Shown one piece after another: positions 5,155-19,289 of a DNA stretch of 64,000 nucleotides. This DNA comes from Candidatus Caenarcanales bacterium (GTDB lineage Bacteria > Cyanobacteriota > Vampirovibrionia > 2-02-FULL-35-15): the NCBI GenBank assembly GCA_020050435.1, contig JAGVKQ010000020.1:140012-204011 (forward strand). The letters are read 5' to 3'. The first letter of the stretch is position 1. Each line of letters opens with the position of its first letter. The notes beneath the pieces are model-generated. The model had not been told where the DNA came from and searched no databases. It worked only from the letters and a program-made list of their open reading frames with translations. The translations under genes and the position numbers were made by a program.

Positions 5155-5559
5155 TTATGATTTCACTTCTGGAGCTGGTAAAGCATCTAAGTCTTTTTCA
5201 AAATGATTTAATTTATCTATCAAAGTTCCATAGTCACATTTTGCTAACCAATATCCACGTACTTTTTCTTTAGGTACTGTTTTTTTAATGTTTGGTGGAC
5301 GTGTGCCGAGTAGTCTTTCCTGACACCATTTGTTTCCTTCTCTATAGTGACAGTCACCTATCTGACAACCCATTACAAAAACACCTTCAGCACCTTGTTT
5401 GAATGCTTCCTCTATCATGATGGGCTGAATCATACCTGAACATGTAACTTCTAAAATTGAAACATTATCTTTTTCTACAAGCTTGTTATTTTTAACCCTT
5501 TTCTTAAGGTCTACACTTCTTTCACAAACAATTCCTAATATTTTCTTTTTTTTGCTCAT
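5155..5559 (-). CDS. MvhD/FlpD-like protein (methyl-viologen-reducing hydrogenase delta-subunit domain)
   Basis: VTCSGMIQP ... FVMGCQIGDCHYREGNKWCQ, the conserved Cys pattern of the MvhD/FlpD domain that accompanies HdrA/QmoB-type electron-transfer modules. Confidence 0.6.
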   Translation of the reverse strand: MSKKKKILGIVCERSVDLKKRVKNNKLVEKDNVSILEVTCSGMIQPIMIEEAFKQGAEGVFVMGCQIGDCHYREGNKWCQERLLGTRPPNIKKTVPKEKVRGYWLAKCDYGTLIDKLNHFEKDLDALPAPEVKS

Positions 5560-5569
5560 GATTTATTCC

Positions 5570-6694
5570 TTATGCAGGCTCCTTGAGAAGATCACTAATT
5601 TTAGTTATAACTTCTTTTGAATGATTTTGTGGAAGATCAATCGCTTTAAATGCACACGCTCCTACACAAAGTCCACACTCCGAACATCTGGCATCTATAA
5701 CTACTGCAAGCTGTTTATACTTAGGATGATCAGTTCTAGGTACCATGTAAATAGCTTCATAAGGACAATCTTTAGCACATAATGTACAACCAACACAATT
5801 GGTTAAACTAACAACAGCTGGTGCTTTTTCTTTATCAGTAACTAAAAATGGAAGAGCAAATAATAATGTAGTGGCTATAAAAACTATTGTCCAGACTATT
5901 AATGCAGGCATACCTGAGAACATAGGGAATATCCATAAATAGAACCAATCTAAAGGAAACTGAGTAGGCAATTTAGTAAGCACTGCTGGATTTACACTAG
6001 CTACTGGATAAACTGAAGCTGGAATCATTATGGATGAAAGAAGCAACAATCCTAGTCCAAGAGGTACGTCTGTAACCGGTCTTGAGATTCTTAAATAATG
6101 TAACCATAAGAGAAATAAGAGTGAAAATGAGATTCCAATATGGAAGAAAAAAGACATTGCTAAAGTATAGTGAGAAATAACATCACCATTAACAAAAATT
6201 TTAGCTAGTGGTAAACCCAAGAAAGGGATTTGCTTTAAAGCATCAGTCATAGCTAAAACTATCATGTATGATCTTTCATCCCATACAAGAATATATCCAG
6301 TTATACCTATGATTAACATTCCAATTAAAAGTACTACACCTGAATACCATGCAATCCAACGATACTTTCTATATCTGTCAGTGAAATAAACTCTAATAGC
6401 ATGAACCAATACTGCAATCATCATGGCATCAGCAGCATATCTATGTAAACCACGAATAATATTTCCAAATGGAAGTTTTGTAGTAATAAAATTGACTGAA
6501 ATATAAGCACTGTCTAAAGTAGGTTGATAATAAACAAATAAAAGAAGTCCTGTAATAAACAAAGTCCACATGAAAAAGTTTGGAACTGCACCATGATAGT
6601 AAAAAGGATTGTACTGCTGAGTAAAAACTTTATTTAAACCTTTTTCAAAAGTTATGGTGGCTTCTTGTAGTTTTTCTAATGTCTCTTTGTACAT
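5570..6694 (-). CDS. cytochrome b(6)-like membrane domain fused to a C-terminal 2x[4Fe-4S] ferredoxin domain
   Basis: Helix-B pair RGLHRYAADAMMIAVLVHAIRVY (H-x13-H) and helix-D pair HIGISFSLLFLLWLH (H-x13-H), typical of the cytochrome b N-terminal domain. C-terminus CVGCTLCAKDCP ... CSECGLCVGACAF = two CxxCxxCxxxC(P) clusters. Confidence 0.65.
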   Translation of the reverse strand: MYKETLEKLQEATITFEKGLNKVFTQQYNPFYYHGAVPNFFMWTLFITGLLLFVYYQPTLDSAYISVNFITTKLPFGNIIRGLHRYAADAMMIAVLVHAIRVYFTDRYRKYRWIAWYSGVVLLIGMLIIGITGYILVWDERSYMIVLAMTDALKQIPFLGLPLAKIFVNGDVISHYTLAMSFFFHIGISFSLLFLLWLHYLRISRPVTDVPLGLGLLLLSSIMIPASVYPVASVNPAVLTKLPTQFPLDWFYLWIFPMFSGMPALIVWTIVFIATTLLFALPFLVTDKEKAPAVVSLTNCVGCTLCAKDCPYEAIYMVPRTDHPKYKQLAVVIDARCSECGLCVGACAFKAIDLPQNHSKEVITKISDLLKEPA

Positions 6695-14542: not shown

Positions 14543-15217
14543 TTAAAGCTTAAGGTTTACATCAAATTTATTTGGAGCACCATTTCTTGATACAACTAAT
14601 CCACTACCAATTATTGATACCAACTCATCTACCCCAAAACCATCAAGAGTTAAATTAGGATCAGCTAGTAAAACTCTTCTGGCTAAGAAATTAGGAACTG
14701 GCTGACCAGATGTCAAAGCTTTAGCTTCAGTCTCTGCAGCTTCTGCGTCCCATTTAGCAATCAGAGATTCATTATCAGCAAGAAATTGTTTAAATTGTAT
14801 GAAAGCATCATTTAGTTTCATGTTTGGAACTGAAGCTGGCATTTTAGGGTTAGTAAAAGCTATAGGACTATCTCCTGTTTGAATTCCAGGACCATATGAA
14901 ATAGTAGTTTGGCGACCAAATATAGTAGCTTTAAACCCTAATGCCTCTTTTCTATCAGGCTTTTTTATAACAACTTCTACATTTACTCTTTTATTTGCAG
15001 TGGATGTTCGAACATTAAAAAGAGTGGGTGAAAAATCAAGTCCATTTGTACATCTATCATTTAAAAGATCTCTTAATTCATTTACGGAAGTAGTAATATC
15101 ACCATTCAATGATATAAGAGCGTGATTACCAATTTGAGATATGTTTGAACCAAAACCTAATCCATTTGCTAAACCAGTACGATTAAAACTATTTAAAGTA
15201 ACAGCTGCAGTTGACAT
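14543..15217 (-). CDS. hypothetical protein (224 aa)
   Basis: Long ORF convergent with and abutting the methyltransferase. No recognisable motif. Confidence 0.4.
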   Translation of the reverse strand: MSTAAVTLNSFNRTGLANGLGFGSNISQIGNHALISLNGDITTSVNELRDLLNDRCTNGLDFSPTLFNVRTSTANKRVNVEVVIKKPDRKEALGFKATIFGRQTTISYGPGIQTGDSPIAFTNPKMPASVPNMKLNDAFIQFKQFLADNESLIAKWDAEAAETEAKALTSGQPVPNFLARRVLLADPNLTLDGFGVDELVSIIGSGLVVSRNGAPNKFDVNLKL

Positions 15218-15434
15218 ATATTTCTCCTTAAATACTTAAATAAGATAGGTAACATTCTATGTTAAAAGTTAGAAATAAATTTATATTGTTATTTTTAATT
15301 TATCTTAGAGTAGAGATTTTTTCGAAGATTAGATTTTTTTAATAATACTTGTTAGAGAAATTTTAATTAAGAATGCAAAGATTGCTGAAAAACTCTTTAA
15401 TATTTCACAAGATTGAAAAATTTAATAATTGACT

Positions 15435-15463
15435 ATTGAAATACTAAAACCAATATGTTAATA
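15435..15463 (+). promoter_or_regulatory. sigma70-like promoter TTGAAA-17-TAATAT (module A)
   Basis: Hexamers at 15435-15440 and 15458-15463 with a 17-bp spacer. Nearly identical to the module at 16880-16908. Confidence 0.45.
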
Positions 15464-15482
15464 TATTACACAACAGATATAA

Positions 15483-15561
15483 AACTTAAGTAAAAAGCAC
15501 TCAGCATCTGGGTTTAAGCATTAGCTGAAAGCTAAATGCTGTTTGCTTAAAGGAGGTCTAT
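15483..15561 (+). promoter_or_regulatory. conserved 5' leader with hairpin (agcattagct-gaaa-agctaaatgct) ending in SD aaaggaggtc
   Basis: Paralogous to 16692-16773: AAAAGCACTCA.CA..GGGTTT.AG.ATT ... TTGCT.AAAGGAGGTC. Confidence 0.45.
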
Positions 15562-15738
15562 ATGGGACTTTTTCCAGCTCGTGCTTTCCCCAGTGCAAGA
15601 ACTTTTGCAAGCCTAGGCAGCAGCAGCCAACCTAAATCTATAAAGAGAACTCCAGCAGCCTCCCCGGCAAGCACAACTACTATTACAGGAGATGGATTTT
15701 TAAAAGCCTTGGTTAATGCTTTTAGAATTTACGTTTAA
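15562..15738 (+). CDS. small ORF (58 aa, Ala/Ser/Pro/Thr-rich) downstream of a strong SD; may instead be part of a structured RNA
   Basis: ATG 7 nt after aaaggaggtc. GC-rich relative to genome. Nucleotide-level similarity to module C falls in a different reading frame, which argues against conservation as protein. Confidence 0.2.
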   Translation: MGLFPARAFPSARTFASLGSSSQPKSIKRTPAASPASTTTITGDGFLKALVNAFRIYV

Positions 15739-15867
15739 TCTCAAAGCTAAATAAACTCTTTTATTAAGAAAAGGTTTTTGCCAATTTAATACCTTTGGCT
15801 ATGGCATTTAATGCTTTGAAATTGCAGCTAATTCTAAAATTAAAAACTTTTATTTAAGGAGATCACC

Positions 15868-16587
15868 ATGAATAGAATTCCAAATGGGGGCATTACGCCT
15901 CCCACTCCACCAATTCCTCCCAGAGGTCCAAATGGTCCCTATGAAACTCCAGGTGATGATGAAAATCTAATCAAAGCAGAATTTGAATTTGATCCTTATC
16001 TTGTAGAACACTACCCTGAAGTAGCAGAGAGGATAGCTGAAACCATTAATCTTATAATTCCACTTAGACCTGATTTATTAGATGTGCTTTCTGATTCTAA
16101 TGTTAAATATTTCATTGGTGTAAGAGAAGATTTAAAATCTATGGTTGAACAATTCGCCGGAATAAAAGAACCGTTAAATAAATATGAATATGAAAAACAA
16201 TTTGACTTCGTAAAAAATGCTGCTGGTTATACTGGCTGCTGTTTAGGAGAAAAAGATAATCCAAGAAGTACAAAGGCTTCATTTATAACTTTTTTCACTC
16301 CTAATATAATCGATAGTAGATATGAGTTAATAGCAGAAATAATTAGACAGCTTACTTTTTCAAAAGAAGCACATAAACTTTTCAAAGACCATGTAGAAAG
16401 AGGCATTCCAATGAATGTAAGCTATCCAAGATTATTAGCAAAAGGAGATGAAGCCGTAATCAGTGCATTAGAGGAAATAAAAGGAATGCTTTATCCACAA
16501 ATTGATAATGAACTGAATACTCTACTAGCAGCAGTAAAATCTTCTCATGTAGAAAATATAGCTAGAATTGCAGAAAGAGAAAATTAA
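15868..16587 (+). CDS. hypothetical protein with Pro-rich N-terminus (239 aa)
   Basis: SD aaggagatcaccATG. PPTPPIPPRGPNGP N-terminus. No recognised domain. Confidence 0.5.
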   Translation: MNRIPNGGITPPTPPIPPRGPNGPYETPGDDENLIKAEFEFDPYLVEHYPEVAERIAETINLIIPLRPDLLDVLSDSNVKYFIGVREDLKSMVEQFAGIKEPLNKYEYEKQFDFVKNAAGYTGCCLGEKDNPRSTKASFITFFTPNIIDSRYELIAEIIRQLTFSKEAHKLFKDHVERGIPMNVSYPRLLAKGDEAVISALEEIKGMLYPQIDNELNTLLAAVKSSHVENIARIAEREN

Positions 16588-16691
16588 TCATTCTTAAACT
16601 TGTAAACTAATGCAAAATTAAAGAAGATAATAATCTCGACTTCTTTTGAGAGTGTGTTAGTATGTTACTTATCAAAGGTAGTTTTTAGTTT

Positions 16692-16773
16692 AAAAAGCAC
16701 TCAACAAGCGGGTTTCAGGATTGGCTTATTTTCAATTCCTGATAACTGATTGCTGCTTGCTCAAAGGAGGTCA
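16692..16773 (+). promoter_or_regulatory. second copy of the conserved leader (module C) ending in SD aaaggaggtc, followed by tandem ATG ATG and a 27-codon ORF
   Basis: Aligned by eye to 15483-15561. Confidence 0.4.
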
Positions 16774-16879
16774 ATGATGATTTTCCCTATAGGAGCGCGT
16801 GTTTCCCCATATATAAAAATATTCCCCAACCTATGCAAGAAATGGGACTCAAAAGGTTAAAAATTTAATATTTACTCTA

Positions 16880-16908
16880 TTGAACTAGGAAAAGAAATAT
16901 GTTAATAT
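16880..16908 (+). promoter_or_regulatory. sigma70-like promoter TTGAAC-17-TAATAT (module B)
   Basis: Paralogous to the 15435-15463 promoter including the flanking aaaaatttaata...tattgaa...aatatgttaatata. Confidence 0.45.
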
Positions 16909-16950
16909 AGGATCAACAAGACAGATTTTTACCTATAAAAGGAGGTATTT

Positions 16951-17115
16951 ATGACTCTCCCTAATATTTCTTTAGCCCAGTACATGGGGGCTAATATATT
17001 TCTAATAGTTTTAATCTTTTTGGCAGCAGTAATGCTAAATGCTTATCTACCACTTATTCCAGATACATGTGAAGGAGATAGATTTGATTCAAGAATAATA
17101 GTCCTAAGTAATTAA
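16951..17115 (+). CDS. small hydrophobic peptide (54 aa, one TM); type I toxin-like or small membrane protein
   Basis: Strong SD aaaaggaggtatttATG. MTLPNISLAQYMGANIFLIVLIFLAAVMLNAYLPLIPDTCEGDRFDSRIIVLSN. Confidence 0.35.
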   Translation: MTLPNISLAQYMGANIFLIVLIFLAAVMLNAYLPLIPDTCEGDRFDSRIIVLSN

Positions 17116-17285
17116 TTTCTCACAGCCCTCCTCGTTCCTTCGTCACTTGTCGGGCTTTGCAAAGTGCACTGGTATTGCCTTGTCTATCATTTTACAGGTT
17201 TTGCTGAATAAATCAGACAAAACCTTACTTTGCCAATACAACATAGAATAAATTTTACGATAGCTGAGTAATTATTTATCTTTAA

Positions 17286-19289
17286 TTACTCTTCTTGTTC
17301 TCTTAATTTTTCAAGTACATTTACATCTTCTAAAGTTGTAGTATCACCTGTAGTTTGCCTTCCACTAGCAATATCTCTAAGTAACCTTCTCATAATTTTC
17401 CCTGAACGGGTCTTAGGAAGAGCATCCGTGAAATGAATTTTTTCTGGTCTAGCAATAGAACCGATTTCTTTAGTGACATGCTCTTTCAATTCTTTAACCA
17501 AATCCTCATCAGTTTTATCATTTTTTATATTGGATTTTTTTGTTACGAATGCACAAATAGCCTCACCTTTAATATCATCTGGATATCCCACTACTGCTGC
17601 CTCAGCTACAGAAGGATGACTAACTAAAGATGATTCTACTTCCATGGTACTTAGTCTGTGTCCTGAAACCTTGATTACATCATCGATTCGCCCAAGCACC
17701 CAGTAGTAACCATCTTTATCACGACGAGCACCATCACCAGCAAAGTAAGAGCCTTTTATATGACTCCAATAAGTTTTTCTATATCTCTCATCATCACCCC
17801 ATATAGTTCTAAGCATAGAAGGCCAAGGTTTTTTAATAACCAGATTTCCACCTTCATTTGGACCAGTAGATTTTCCTTCGCTGTCCACTATATCTACAAA
17901 TATTCCAGGAAGTGGTAACGTCGCTGAACCTGGCTTAGAAGAAGTAATTCCAGGCAGTGGTGAAATCATAATTCCACCTGTTTCAGTCTGCCACCACGTA
18001 TCAACTATCGGACATTTTTTATTTCCAATATTCTCGTGATACCACATCCATGCTTCAGGATTTATAGGTTCTCCTACACTTCCCAATAATCTAAGTGAAG
18101 AAAGATCATATTTTTTCACCCAATCTAAACCAGCCTTGGCAAAGGCTCTAATGGCAGTCGGTGCTGTATAAAAAACAGACACCTTGTTTTCATTTATTAT
18201 TTTCCAAAATCTTCCCCAGTCTGGGAAATTCGGCGCACCTTCATAAAGTAGAACAGTAGCACCATTACTAAGGGGTCCATAAACTACATATGTATGCCCT
18301 GTAACCCAGCCTATATCAGCACTACACCAGTAAATATCAGAATCTTTAATATCAAAAATCCATTTAGTAGTTAATGTAGCCCAAAGTAAATACCCAGCAG
18401 TACTATGTAAAATGCCTTTGGGTTTTCCAGTAGTACCTGAAGTATAGAGAGTAAAAAGTGGATGCTCTGAATCCAACTCAGTTGCTTTATGGATAGCAGA
18501 TGATTTTGACATAAGTTCATGCCAAGAGAAGGTTAATGGTTGATGGTTGATGGTTGATGGTTGGGGATTATTATTTATTCTGCCTACCACAATAACATTT
18601 TCAACAGTAGTACATTTCTTCAAAGCCTCATCTACATTTATTTTCAGAGGAACTATCTGACCGCGACGATAACCACCATCAGCTGTTATAACTAACTTAG
18701 CTTTAGAATCATTTATTCTATCAGCCAAAGCTTCCTGACTAAATCCACCAAAAACCACACTATGAACAGCACCAATTCTAGTACAAGCAAGCATTGCCAC
18801 TACAGCTTCAGGGACAAGTGGCATATAAATAATTATTCTGTCTTTTTCTTTAATTCCAAGATTTATTAAAACATTGGAGAACTTACAAACTTCTTCATGT
18901 AGTTCTTTATAAGTAAGTTCTTTCTTCTCTTCATTTTCCCCTATCCAAATTAATGCTTTTTTATTTCCTCTTTTTTCTAAATGTCTGTCCAAACAATTAA
19001 AAGAAACATTGGTTTTTCCATTCACAAACCACTTAGAAAAAGGCTCATTCCAATCCAAGACCTTATCCCATTTTTTAAACCAATGCAGATTCTCATTAGC
19101 TAAATCACTCCAAAAACCCTCAAAATCAGTATTTGCTTTTTTTACTAATTTTTCATACTCAGACTTAGAAAGATTTGCCTGCTTAGCAAAAGCATCTGAA
19201 GGTGGGAATAAGCGATCTTCATGCAAACTGGATTCTATATTTTTTTCTGACATATTTTCATTATATCGTTTTAAATTTATATGAGACAA
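17286..19289 (-). CDS. acs: acetyl-CoA synthetase (AMP-forming)
   Basis: 667 aa. [14 protein letters not shown]-binding motif. Collinear with E. coli Acs including the C-terminal [11 protein letters not shown]. Confidence 0.9.
18531..18565. repeat. tandem heptamer (ggttRat)x5 inside the acs coding sequence
   Basis: ggttaat ggttgat ggttgat ggttgat ggttggg read directly; encodes [12 protein letters not shown] on the minus strand. Confidence 0.8.

Follow-up and report, generated by a model that had tools for sequence, protein, structure and literature searches.

Repeated promoter, leader and ribosome-binding-site cassettes in an island of small orphan genes from a Candidatus Caenarcanales bacterium

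Organization of the island

The window, by which the whole 64-kb stretch of analysed DNA is meant, contains a fast-changing cluster of small protein genes that is specific to the lineage. The cluster is bounded by a conserved DNA methyltransferase gene on one side and by acs on the other. It was compared, by synteny and gene content, with seven related loci from public assemblies. In the more distant relatives the island consists of a gene for 469 aa on the minus strand, a gene for 371 aa, a promoter with or without a leader in front of a 103-aa gene, a 59-aa gene, a hairpin or terminator, and genes for 242, 406 and 207 aa, in this order. The window carries a reduced form of this orphan-gene island. 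Its three modules, all of which are found in the close relative L020, comprise the following features together with the gene that anchors the island.

15436-15464, plus strand: predicted promoter P1 (promoter scan; -35 TTGAAA, 17-nt spacer, extended -10 TGtTAATAT)
15495-15548, plus strand: leader hairpin copy 1 (AAGCA...UGCUU), a long imperfect stem-loop that immediately precedes the ribosome-binding site (MFE -22.5 kcal/mol, z -5.2; CM score 80 bits)
15549-15738, plus strand: ribosome-binding site AAAGGAGGT (15549-15557) and ORF58 (15562-15738), of a 59-aa small-protein family
15868-16587, plus strand: ORF239, the orphan protein that anchors the island
16636-16663, plus strand: P2, a decayed promoter copy that aligns with P1 (extended -10 TGTTAGTAT at 16655-16663, weak -35)
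16695-16761, plus strand: leader hairpin copy 2 (MFE -19.5 kcal/mol, z -3.0; CM score 98 bits)
16763-16860, plus strand: ribosome-binding site AAAGGAGGT (16763-16771) and the short ORF27 (ATG at 16774 or 16777, stop at 16860; 27-28 aa)
16880-16908, plus strand: predicted promoter P3, a near copy of P1 (TTGAAC-17-TAATAT with TG extension)
16938-17115, plus strand: short UTR without leader, ribosome-binding site AAAGGAGGT (16938-16946), and the gene for a small membrane protein with one membrane pass, ORF54 (16951-17115)

Homologs of ORF239 with 66-91% identity are present in all the related loci, and its pN/pS against L020 is 0.19. The protein has no Pfam match above the curated cut-off (the one sub-threshold match was to CAMP_factor, E 0.0015), no NCBIfam match and no significant PDB fold match. 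It has only 2 representatives among 1.84 billion, and no relatives in viral contigs. ORF58 and ORF239 are probably co-transcribed, since no convincing terminator was found between them; none was found after ORF27 in the window either. In four relatives (L015, L017, L065 and L066) a GC-rich hairpin lies within about 10 nt after the 59-aa ORF and before the 242-aa gene, and in L015 it is accompanied by a T-run.

The small open reading frames

ORF58 is annotated as a hypothetical protein in NCBI and JGI. It has homologs in L066, L015, L065 and L017 with the common C-terminus FLxALVNAxRIYV. Alignment, profile search and synteny place ORF58 in the 59-aa family, the members of which are 58-59 aa long, end in FLxALVNAxR(I/L)YV and are encoded upstream of the 239/242-aa gene. 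The C-terminus is conserved in five lineages, and pN/pS in the family is 0.43-0.5 for the closer pairs.

ORF54 is identical to its L020 counterpart at 47 of 54 residues, and its pN/pS of 0.19 equals that of the neighbouring ORF239, which indicates purifying selection. The value for the 103-aa family is about 0.3. The ribosome-binding site and first codons of ORF54 match those of the 103-aa gene of L017 (92% over 26 nt), the protein has weak end-to-end similarity to the 103-aa family, and a profile search returned only 103-aa and 54-aa proteins of this clade. From these similarities, ORF54 looks like a shortened member of the 103-aa family.

An earlier note on this DNA had described the 54-aa product as a single-TM peptide, and one hydrophobic stretch, at residues 14-37, is indeed read directly from the sequence. 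The same note proposed a type I toxin-antitoxin locus. Type I loci (hok/sok, ldr/rdl, ibs/sib, tisB/istR and aapA/isoA, as defined in PMC2887945 and PMC8594479) are often tandemly duplicated (PMC2887945), and the island resembles them in its repeated modules within one intergenic region and in ORF54, which is shorter than 60 aa and has a single hydrophobic helix, a polar C-terminus, a strong promoter and a strong ribosome-binding site that, by prediction, pairs for the most part with codons 3-4 (CUCC). On the minus strand, positions 17123-17095 weakly resemble a promoter, but they fall partly within a 170-nt insert that is absent from L020, where a different weak site occurs. No minus-strand promoter is conserved between the window and L020, such weak sites are not enriched over shuffles, and no gene for an antisense or trans-acting RNA is detectable here from the sequence. 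Synonymous divergence in ORF54 (pS 0.30) is not below that in ORF239 (0.21), and thus no overlapping RNA constrains ORF54, which is under the ordinary purifying selection described above. ORF54 has no Pfam or NCBIfam match and no homology to known toxins. Unlike a type I toxin, it is related at its start and its ends to a longer family with signal-peptide-like N-termini, and the peptides of the other two modules, ORF58 and ORF27, are basic and not hydrophobic. The toxin-antitoxin assignment is not upheld by these results.

The similarity downstream of the first two leaders had been taken to run in different reading frames, so that the conserved unit would be nucleic acid and not peptide. The ORFs of modules 1 and 2 in fact share one frame for about 20 codons, given a two-codon indel (M-x-L/I-F-P-(IG)-A-R-x-x-P-x-x-R/K-x-F). 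ORF27 aligns codon-wise and in frame with ORF58, with L066 and L019, and with both short ORFs of L020; its alignment with L020 and ORF58 stays in a shared frame except for a -1/+1 shift that is local and compensated. The module-2 ORF of L020 (MIFPIGARCFPCIRTF...) matches ORF58 (MGLFPARAFPSARTF...) without any shift, and the 'tgcaagaa' match of the earlier note pairs non-homologous positions. The in-frame alignment, the membership of ORF58 in the 59-aa family and the pN/pS of ORF54 all speak against conservation at the nucleotide rather than the protein level. ORF27, which is without gene annotation in public records, is by its alignment a paralogous fragment matching the N-terminal third of the ORF58 family. 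In L020 it is kept as a 22-aa ORF (12/22 residues identical, pN 0.34, pS 0.65).

Promoters, leader hairpins and ribosome-binding sites

An alignment of 62 nt between the promoter regions at 15405-15465 and 16849-16909 has 81% identity (E 3e-9 within the window), in agreement with the two near-identical promoters first noticed here. The P1 core, AATATGTTAATATA, is common to P3 and to the promoters of all the related loci, and 10 of 12 cassettes have the -10 block TGTTAATATA unchanged. TTGAAA-17-TAATAT with the TG extension is present in the window and twice in L020, where the promoter scan also recovered the counterpart of P3. The hexamers, the 17-nt spacing and the conserved orthologous positions are those expected of sigma-70-type promoters. 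P2 is poorly conserved, L020 reading TGCTAAGAT at this position.

In each module AAAGGAGGT is followed by an ATG and an ORF of 58, 27/28 or 54 codons, so that the three combinations of modules, each with a perfect Shine-Dalgarno sequence (AAAGGAGG) and a short ORF, are as originally described. The two leader copies align in two blocks at 81% identity (15491-15526 with 16691-16726, and 15525-15561 with 16739-16775). The 5' motif of the leader occurs twice against 0.06 occurrences expected, and the 3' motif with the ribosome-binding site twice against 0.22. The promoter, leader and ribosome-binding-site repeats are real and well above chance. The modules are also shuffled across the clade: in different genomes one promoter core is fused to 103-aa-, 59-aa- or 242-aa-type genes, with or without the leader, and the -10 element and the ATG are 101-128 nt apart in cassettes with the leader and 49-51 nt apart in leaderless ones.

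The leader, 51-81 nt long, forms one extended imperfect hairpin between 'TAAAAA' and AAAGGAGG. Its comparison is based on only six sequences from three or four independent lineages. A rod fold is predicted for all six (z -2.7 to -5.2). With the structure derived from the same six-sequence alignment, 87.9% of the cells of the 17 consensus pairs are paired, versus 15-46% with slid partners, and five pairs have double, compensatory changes, a result reached in 1 of 500 shuffles. The two hairpin copies seen at the outset are both among the six. The RNAalifold covariation term is +1.2, that is, no net bonus. In the 5' half of copy 2, the base of the leader is identical to L020 at 28/28 positions, and about 40 nt of the translation start region are nearly identical, at a synonymous divergence of 0.2-0.3. 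This conservation above neutral sites hints at a function more specific than that of a passive stem-loop.

The leader is found upstream of 103-type genes in L015 and L017 and of 59-type genes in the window and L020. It is absent before the same gene types in L019, L065, L066, L018 and module 3. Its presence varies among near-identical relatives; the methyltransferases flanking the island of L015, which has the leader, and of L065, which is leaderless, are 99% identical. Neither a consistent link between the leader and a gene class nor indispensability of the leader in orthologous contexts was found.

Searches for further copies were negative. Rfam 15 gave no match in the whole window at the gathering score, and only chance-level matches (E 1.3 or higher) in 15200-17300 with E up to 10. 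A CM search of the 64-kb window with filters off returned only the two island copies, and none was found elsewhere in about 53 kb of the relatives' loci (117 kb in all, window included). A pattern scan of the GTDB species genomes gave 14 matches, all due to chance; one lay inside rpmH and none continued into the 3' half of the leader. A broader pattern of leader and ribosome-binding site gave 43 matches in JGI metagenomes, only the L020 contig being a true one, and viral contigs had none with the patterns used. Most of the other JGI matches were CAGCA(A/T)T heptamer repeats. The idea of a family of loci is thus not borne out, the modules being unique to this spot in the sequence searched. The earlier note had named, among the findings that would refute it, modules confined to this spot and showing no structural covariation; of these, uniqueness is what was found in the sequence searched.

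Two other identities of the hairpin were considered and rejected. On the minus strand it is followed by GCUUUUUA in 5/6 copies, as in an intrinsic terminator; this was rejected as the main reading because the plus strand carries all the neighbouring genes in the relatives, and because internal loops and a high AU content mark the base of the stem. An integron attC site was rejected, the R'/R'' core sites being absent.

Origin of the modules and alternative explanations

On balance, the island is probably a set of orphan genes reshaped by deletions and duplications that took place at ribosome-binding sites resembling one another, with an optional 5'-UTR hairpin of probably modulatory role. Three transcription units would have arisen, in the lineage to which the window and L020 belong, by deletions and a local duplication with end points at the very similar AAAGGAGG sites. 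The first would consist of P1, the hairpin leader and the 59-aa-family gene ORF58, reading on into ORF239. The second, a partial duplicate, would retain the leader and ribosome-binding site behind a decayed promoter and, of a 59-aa-type gene, only the N-terminal third. The third would combine a promoter copy and a short leaderless UTR with ORF54, a shortened 103-aa-type membrane protein. The observed similarities would therefore exist because the cassettes of promoter, UTR and 5' coding sequence are paralogous. The repeat is most likely ordinary local genome reshuffling and not a toxin-antitoxin or small-RNA locus. Counting against this explanation are the conservation of the leader base and the translation start beyond that of neutral sites, the lack of a net covariation bonus, the equal stability of the hairpin on the minus strand, the small number of leader sequences, and the retention of module 2 in both lineages, where a simple gene remnant would not be expected to keep its start and frame intact.

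Among structured 5'-UTR hairpins with an effect on mRNA stability or processing are the 5' stem-loops of ompA, the RNase III sites in the leaders of phage T7 and lambda N, and the 5' stabilisers of Bacillus. The leader is similar in being a long imperfect rod directly upstream of a strong ribosome-binding site, which it does not sequester, and in being dispensable for the gene. Unlike them, it lies about 20-25 nt from the predicted 5' end instead of at the end, and its sequence is unrelated to described elements. The most likely role of the rod is to adjust how stable the mRNA is, how it is processed (for instance by an RNase III-type enzyme) or how efficiently it is translated; it is probably not a switch.

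The main alternative is that the leader and the hairpin formed by the ribosome-binding site and first codons constitute a new cis-regulatory RNA, a translational switch or thermosensor for the small-protein family, with module 2 as a regulatory upstream ORF or RNA decoy. It would account for the conserved hairpin with its compensatory pairs and for module 2, which drifts between the window and L020 except for its nearly identical leader base, ribosome-binding site and first 8 codons. A predicted hairpin sequestering the ribosome-binding site is kept in modules 1 (GGAGGUCU...AGACUUUUCC) and 2 (GGAGGUCA...UGAUUUUCC) with one U-A to A-U exchange, and accessibility of the site is somewhat lower in the cassettes (median about 0.2) than in 13 control genes of the window (0.38; p 0.03, the samples not being independent). 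However, the predicted pairing is the same with or without the leader, its partner being the first codons; the leader neither masks the site nor pairs with it. The leader is also dispensable, as seen from its distribution, its distal part varies in length and sequence, it has no multi-stem junction or conserved loop, and the six sequences have neither an Rfam family nor further copies in the window or the relatives' loci. The alternative is considered unlikely. A more specific version, in which the leader and the stem that pairs the ribosome-binding site with the Phe-Pro codons (GGAGG with UUUCC) form a previously undescribed translational control element (a thermosensor, or a protein or RNase site) specific to the tiny basic-protein family of an almost unsampled lineage, the truncated module 2 being kept as a regulatory upstream ORF or RNA and not as a gene remnant, is distinctly unlikely.

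The leader might also be a small palindromic mobile element, of MITE-like or Correia/RPE-like type, inserted in the A-run before the ribosome-binding site and then copied with the cassette. Correia elements, which are substrates of RNase III, occupy positions between promoters and genes (PMC2649163), and the leader shares with them and with other bacterial MITEs (PMC2649163, PMC10969869) the character of a hairpin-forming indel between promoter and gene, polymorphic among close relatives, here between backgrounds whose flanks are 99% identical. The sequence is TAAAAAAGGAGG at empty sites and TAAAAA[hairpin]AAAGGAGG at filled ones; the imperfect terminal inverted repeats (AAGCA...TGCTT), the variable interior and the equal stability on both strands would also fit. 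Unlike such elements, the leader occurs at this locus only in the sequence searched, with two copies in the window and one per relative, and has no true match in the GTDB, JGI and viral scans; it is shorter (51-81 nt), lacks its own promoter and shows no clear duplication of a target site. Between L015 and L065, 31 nt of UTR 5' of the hairpin differ as well, so that the UTR allele seems to have been replaced as a whole, and not to have gained a clean insertion. The junctions share only AAA, which deletion at microhomology would explain equally. A mobile origin is very unlikely.

It is highly improbable that the 22-28-aa ORFs are regulatory leader peptides that control the gene behind them, which would be ORF54 for module 2 and, in L020, ORF239 for module 1. 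Attenuation by leader peptides is either translational, of the ermC type, or transcriptional, of the trp type. The island is comparable in that a short ORF stands behind a promoter and ahead of a larger gene, and the short ORFs, with the motif M-x-L/I-F-P..AR..P..R-x-F, are kept in frame in the window and L020. In the four relatives with a GC-rich hairpin closely after the 59-aa ORF, ribosomes finishing the small ORF could influence read-through. However, the small ORF belongs to a family whose full-length members share a conserved C-terminus, which argues for protein function; no antiterminator or other mutually exclusive pairings were found; ORF54 has its own strong promoter; and the window is without a convincing terminator after ORF58 or ORF27.

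Least probable of all is that ORF54, and perhaps the short ORFs too, are type I toxins controlled by an antisense or trans-encoded small RNA, for which the points against were given with that gene.

If remodelling of the orphan-gene island is the correct explanation, the locus shows how promoter and ribosome-binding-site cassettes are re-fused to different small genes in a hypervariable island. For annotation, ORF58 and ORF54 would then be treated as real genes and ORF27 as a paralogous fragment, and no new question would be opened. The hairpin would be of wider interest only if it proved to be a switch. L015 and L065 represent natural alleles with and without the leader in otherwise near-identical backgrounds, and would offer a simple test of what a 5'-UTR rod does next to a strong ribosome-binding site.

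Setting and modules of the island

The island (15218-17285) lies in a window of 33% G+C, between a 224-aa ORF and the acetyl-CoA synthetase gene; a DNA methyltransferase gene and cbb3 oxidase genes are located further upstream.

Flanking features
14543-15217, minus strand, 224-aa ORF
17286-19289, minus strand, acetyl-CoA synthetase gene (acs)

The promoters described in the earlier note are present: P1 (TTGAAA-17-TAATAT with a TG extension, 15436-15464), recovered by the promoter scan, and its near copy P3 at 16880-16908. Their promoter regions share 81% identity along 62 nt (E 3e-9). The two copies of the leader, a 5'-UTR hairpin, are likewise present and are 81% identical in two blocks; the 5' motif of the leader is present twice where 0.06 copies are expected, and the 3' motif twice where 0.22 are. 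In all three modules AAAGGAGGT is followed by an ORF, of 58, 27/28 or 54 codons (ORF58, ORF27 and ORF54 of modules 1, 2 and 3). Module 2 carries an additional degenerate promoter copy with the extended -10 TGTTAGTAT at 16655-16663. The inventory therefore amounts to three transcription units, of which two have the leader and the third a short UTR. Perfect AAAGGAGG is found in every island cassette, unlike most long ORFs of the window, only 13 of 55 of which have GGAG, GAGG or AGGA 3-18 nt ahead of the listed start (a rough figure, as the listed starts are longest-ORF starts). The translation signals of the island thus look atypical for the genome.

The close relative L020/L021, whose methyltransferase is 98% and whose ORF239 (the 239-aa island protein) is 91% identical to that of the window, has the same three modules. 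The distant relatives (L015/L016, L017, L019, L065, L066 and L018) have a larger island, with the gene order 469 aa (minus strand), 371, 103 and 59 aa, a GC-rich hairpin, then 242, 406 and 207 aa. Across these genomes one promoter core, AAT(A/G)TGTTAATATA, precedes different genes.

Genes preceded by the promoter core
103-aa gene: L015, L017, L019, L065, L066
59-type gene: window, L020
242-aa gene, directly: L018

Counted from the -10 element, the ATG lies 49-51 nt away in leaderless cassettes and 101-128 nt away where the leader is present. The methyltransferases of L015 and L065 are 99% identical, yet of the two only L015 has the leader. Empty sites read TAAAAAAGGAGG and filled sites TAAAAA[hairpin]AAAGGAGG, and every fusion is exact at similar ribosome-binding sites. 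The module combinations probably arose by deletions, duplications or allele replacement at the short homologies of these sites.

The edges of the island also vary. The 224-aa ORF, which by eye resembles the N-terminal half of the relatives' 467-505-aa minus-strand gene, may be a truncated version of it. Its L020 counterpart is a 176-aa ORF whose 5' end has no DNA-level alignment to the window, and this difference again points to reduction and turnover along the island edge. The intergenic block 15279-15352 is the same in L020 at 74 of 76 nt, against a synonymous-site divergence of 0.2-0.3. For positions 15317-15353 of the block, identity is 81-84% to L015, L017 and L019 and 77% to L018. The relatives' copy of that part sits between the 469-aa and 371-aa genes, which are divergent, and the block is probably a shared promoter or operator region. 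No conservation is seen for a 27-codon ORF within it. At the other edge, a GC-richer 170-nt insert (17116-17285), found in the window only, separates ORF54 from the acs stop codon, which directly adjoins the preceding gene in L020, L015 and L017. The insert is single-copy in the window, has two hairpins (fold z -2.0) and no Rfam match.

The leader hairpin

Each of the six available leaders, folded singly, forms one long imperfect hairpin of 51-81 nt (z -2.7 to -5.2). The alignment consensus has three helices, of which helix P1 pairs AGCA with UGCU at the hairpin base, immediately 5' of the ribosome-binding site. In this consensus 87.9% of pair cells are paired; with slid partners the figure is 15-46%. 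Double changes occur at five pairs, and there is no net RNAalifold covariation bonus. The minus strand folds equally well. Coming from six sequences, with the structure derived from the same alignment, the pairing and double changes are suggestive but weak support for a conserved leader structure. In module 2, the hairpin base, ribosome-binding site and first eight codons differ less between the window and L020 than synonymous sites do, so some constraint exists; the distal stem and remaining ORF drift.

That the leader is a genuine new cis-regulatory element is unlikely. Structure predictions show no pairing of the leader with the ribosome-binding site. In 12 of 12 cassettes, with or without leader, most of that site is predicted to pair with the first codons (CUUUUUCC or CUCC). 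The leader has no Rfam match in the window and the region searched. When a covariance model of the six leaders was run with filters off, the 64-kb window yielded nothing beyond the two copies of the island, and the relatives' loci nothing additional. Searched by pattern, GTDB species genomes, JGI metagenomes and viral contigs produced nothing but chance matches, the close-relative contig excepted. Among the metagenome loci L023-L064, the matches on many high-GC soil contigs are chance matches to CAGCA(A/T)T heptamers repeated in tandem; these are unrelated to the island.

The small ORFs and their relatives

The small ORFs of the island are genes or gene fragments. ORF58 is a homolog of the relatives' 59-aa gene; the C-terminus FLxALVNAxR(I/L)YV is common to five lineages of this family, and L066 has the N-terminus, MGLFPSVGIRMFPSTRTLISLGS, in common with ORF58 as well. 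The pN/pS of closer pairs is 0.43-0.5. The gene has decayed to a 25-aa ORF in L020 and, in L019, to a frameshifted 61-aa ORF (5546-5731), and is therefore dispensable. The conserved C-terminal NALRIYV and stop codon of L019 are encoded in a different reading frame from the 61-aa ORF. In four relatives a GC-rich hairpin starts at most about 10 nt after the 59-aa ORF, with a T-run behind it in L015; no hairpin of comparable strength follows ORF58 in the window.

GC-rich hairpin between the 59-aa ORF and the 242-aa gene
L015, 5156-5190
L017, 5946-5985
L065, 7516-7550
L066, 862-895

In the alignment the module-2 ORF shares its reading frame with ORF58, with the genes of L066 and L019 and with the two short L020 ORFs; their common pattern is M-x-L/I-F-P-(IG)-A-R-x-x-P-x-x-R/K-x-F. 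The downstream similarity between the first two modules had been placed in different reading frames because non-homologous 'tgcaagaa' strings were paired; the codon alignment gives both ORFs one frame. ORF54 is identical in L020 at 47 of 54 aa. The two copies differ by 11 synonymous and 7 non-synonymous changes, and pN/pS is 0.19, the value also obtained for ORF239. Over the ribosome-binding site and first codons ORF54 matches the L017 103-aa gene, and its halves align weakly to the N- and C-terminal parts of the 103-aa family.

The proposal that these ORFs are type I toxin-antitoxin loci fits only the shape of ORF54 and is opposed by several observations: there is no conserved antisense promoter (a weak site, 17123-17095, lies partly in the window-only insert), ORF54 synonymous sites have no extra conservation, the other peptides are not hydrophobic but basic, and no toxin family matches.

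ORF239 has only 5 homologs among 5.8 billion proteins, and its family 2 representatives among 1.84 billion; the contigs encoding the homologs share synteny with the window over the stretch between the methyltransferase gene and acs, both included. Island proteins have no Pfam match above the curated cut-off and no NCBIfam domain. For ORF239 there is no significant domain match, and its AF2 model (pLDDT 70) has no PDB fold match. Together with the relatives' proteins of 469, 371, 406, 207, 103 and 59 aa it is an extreme orphan. Island proteins diverge faster than the flanks (those of the window and L015 are 72% identical, the methyltransferases 86%).

The earlier note was thus largely right in what it observed and mostly not in how it read it. 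The account with the best support is that promoter, UTR and 5' coding cassettes are paralogs within an island of orphan small-protein genes that is shrinking and hypervariable, and that the 5'-UTR hairpin is an optional part. The role of the hairpin is probably modulatory, in stability, processing or translation efficiency. The features of the island belong to known kinds.
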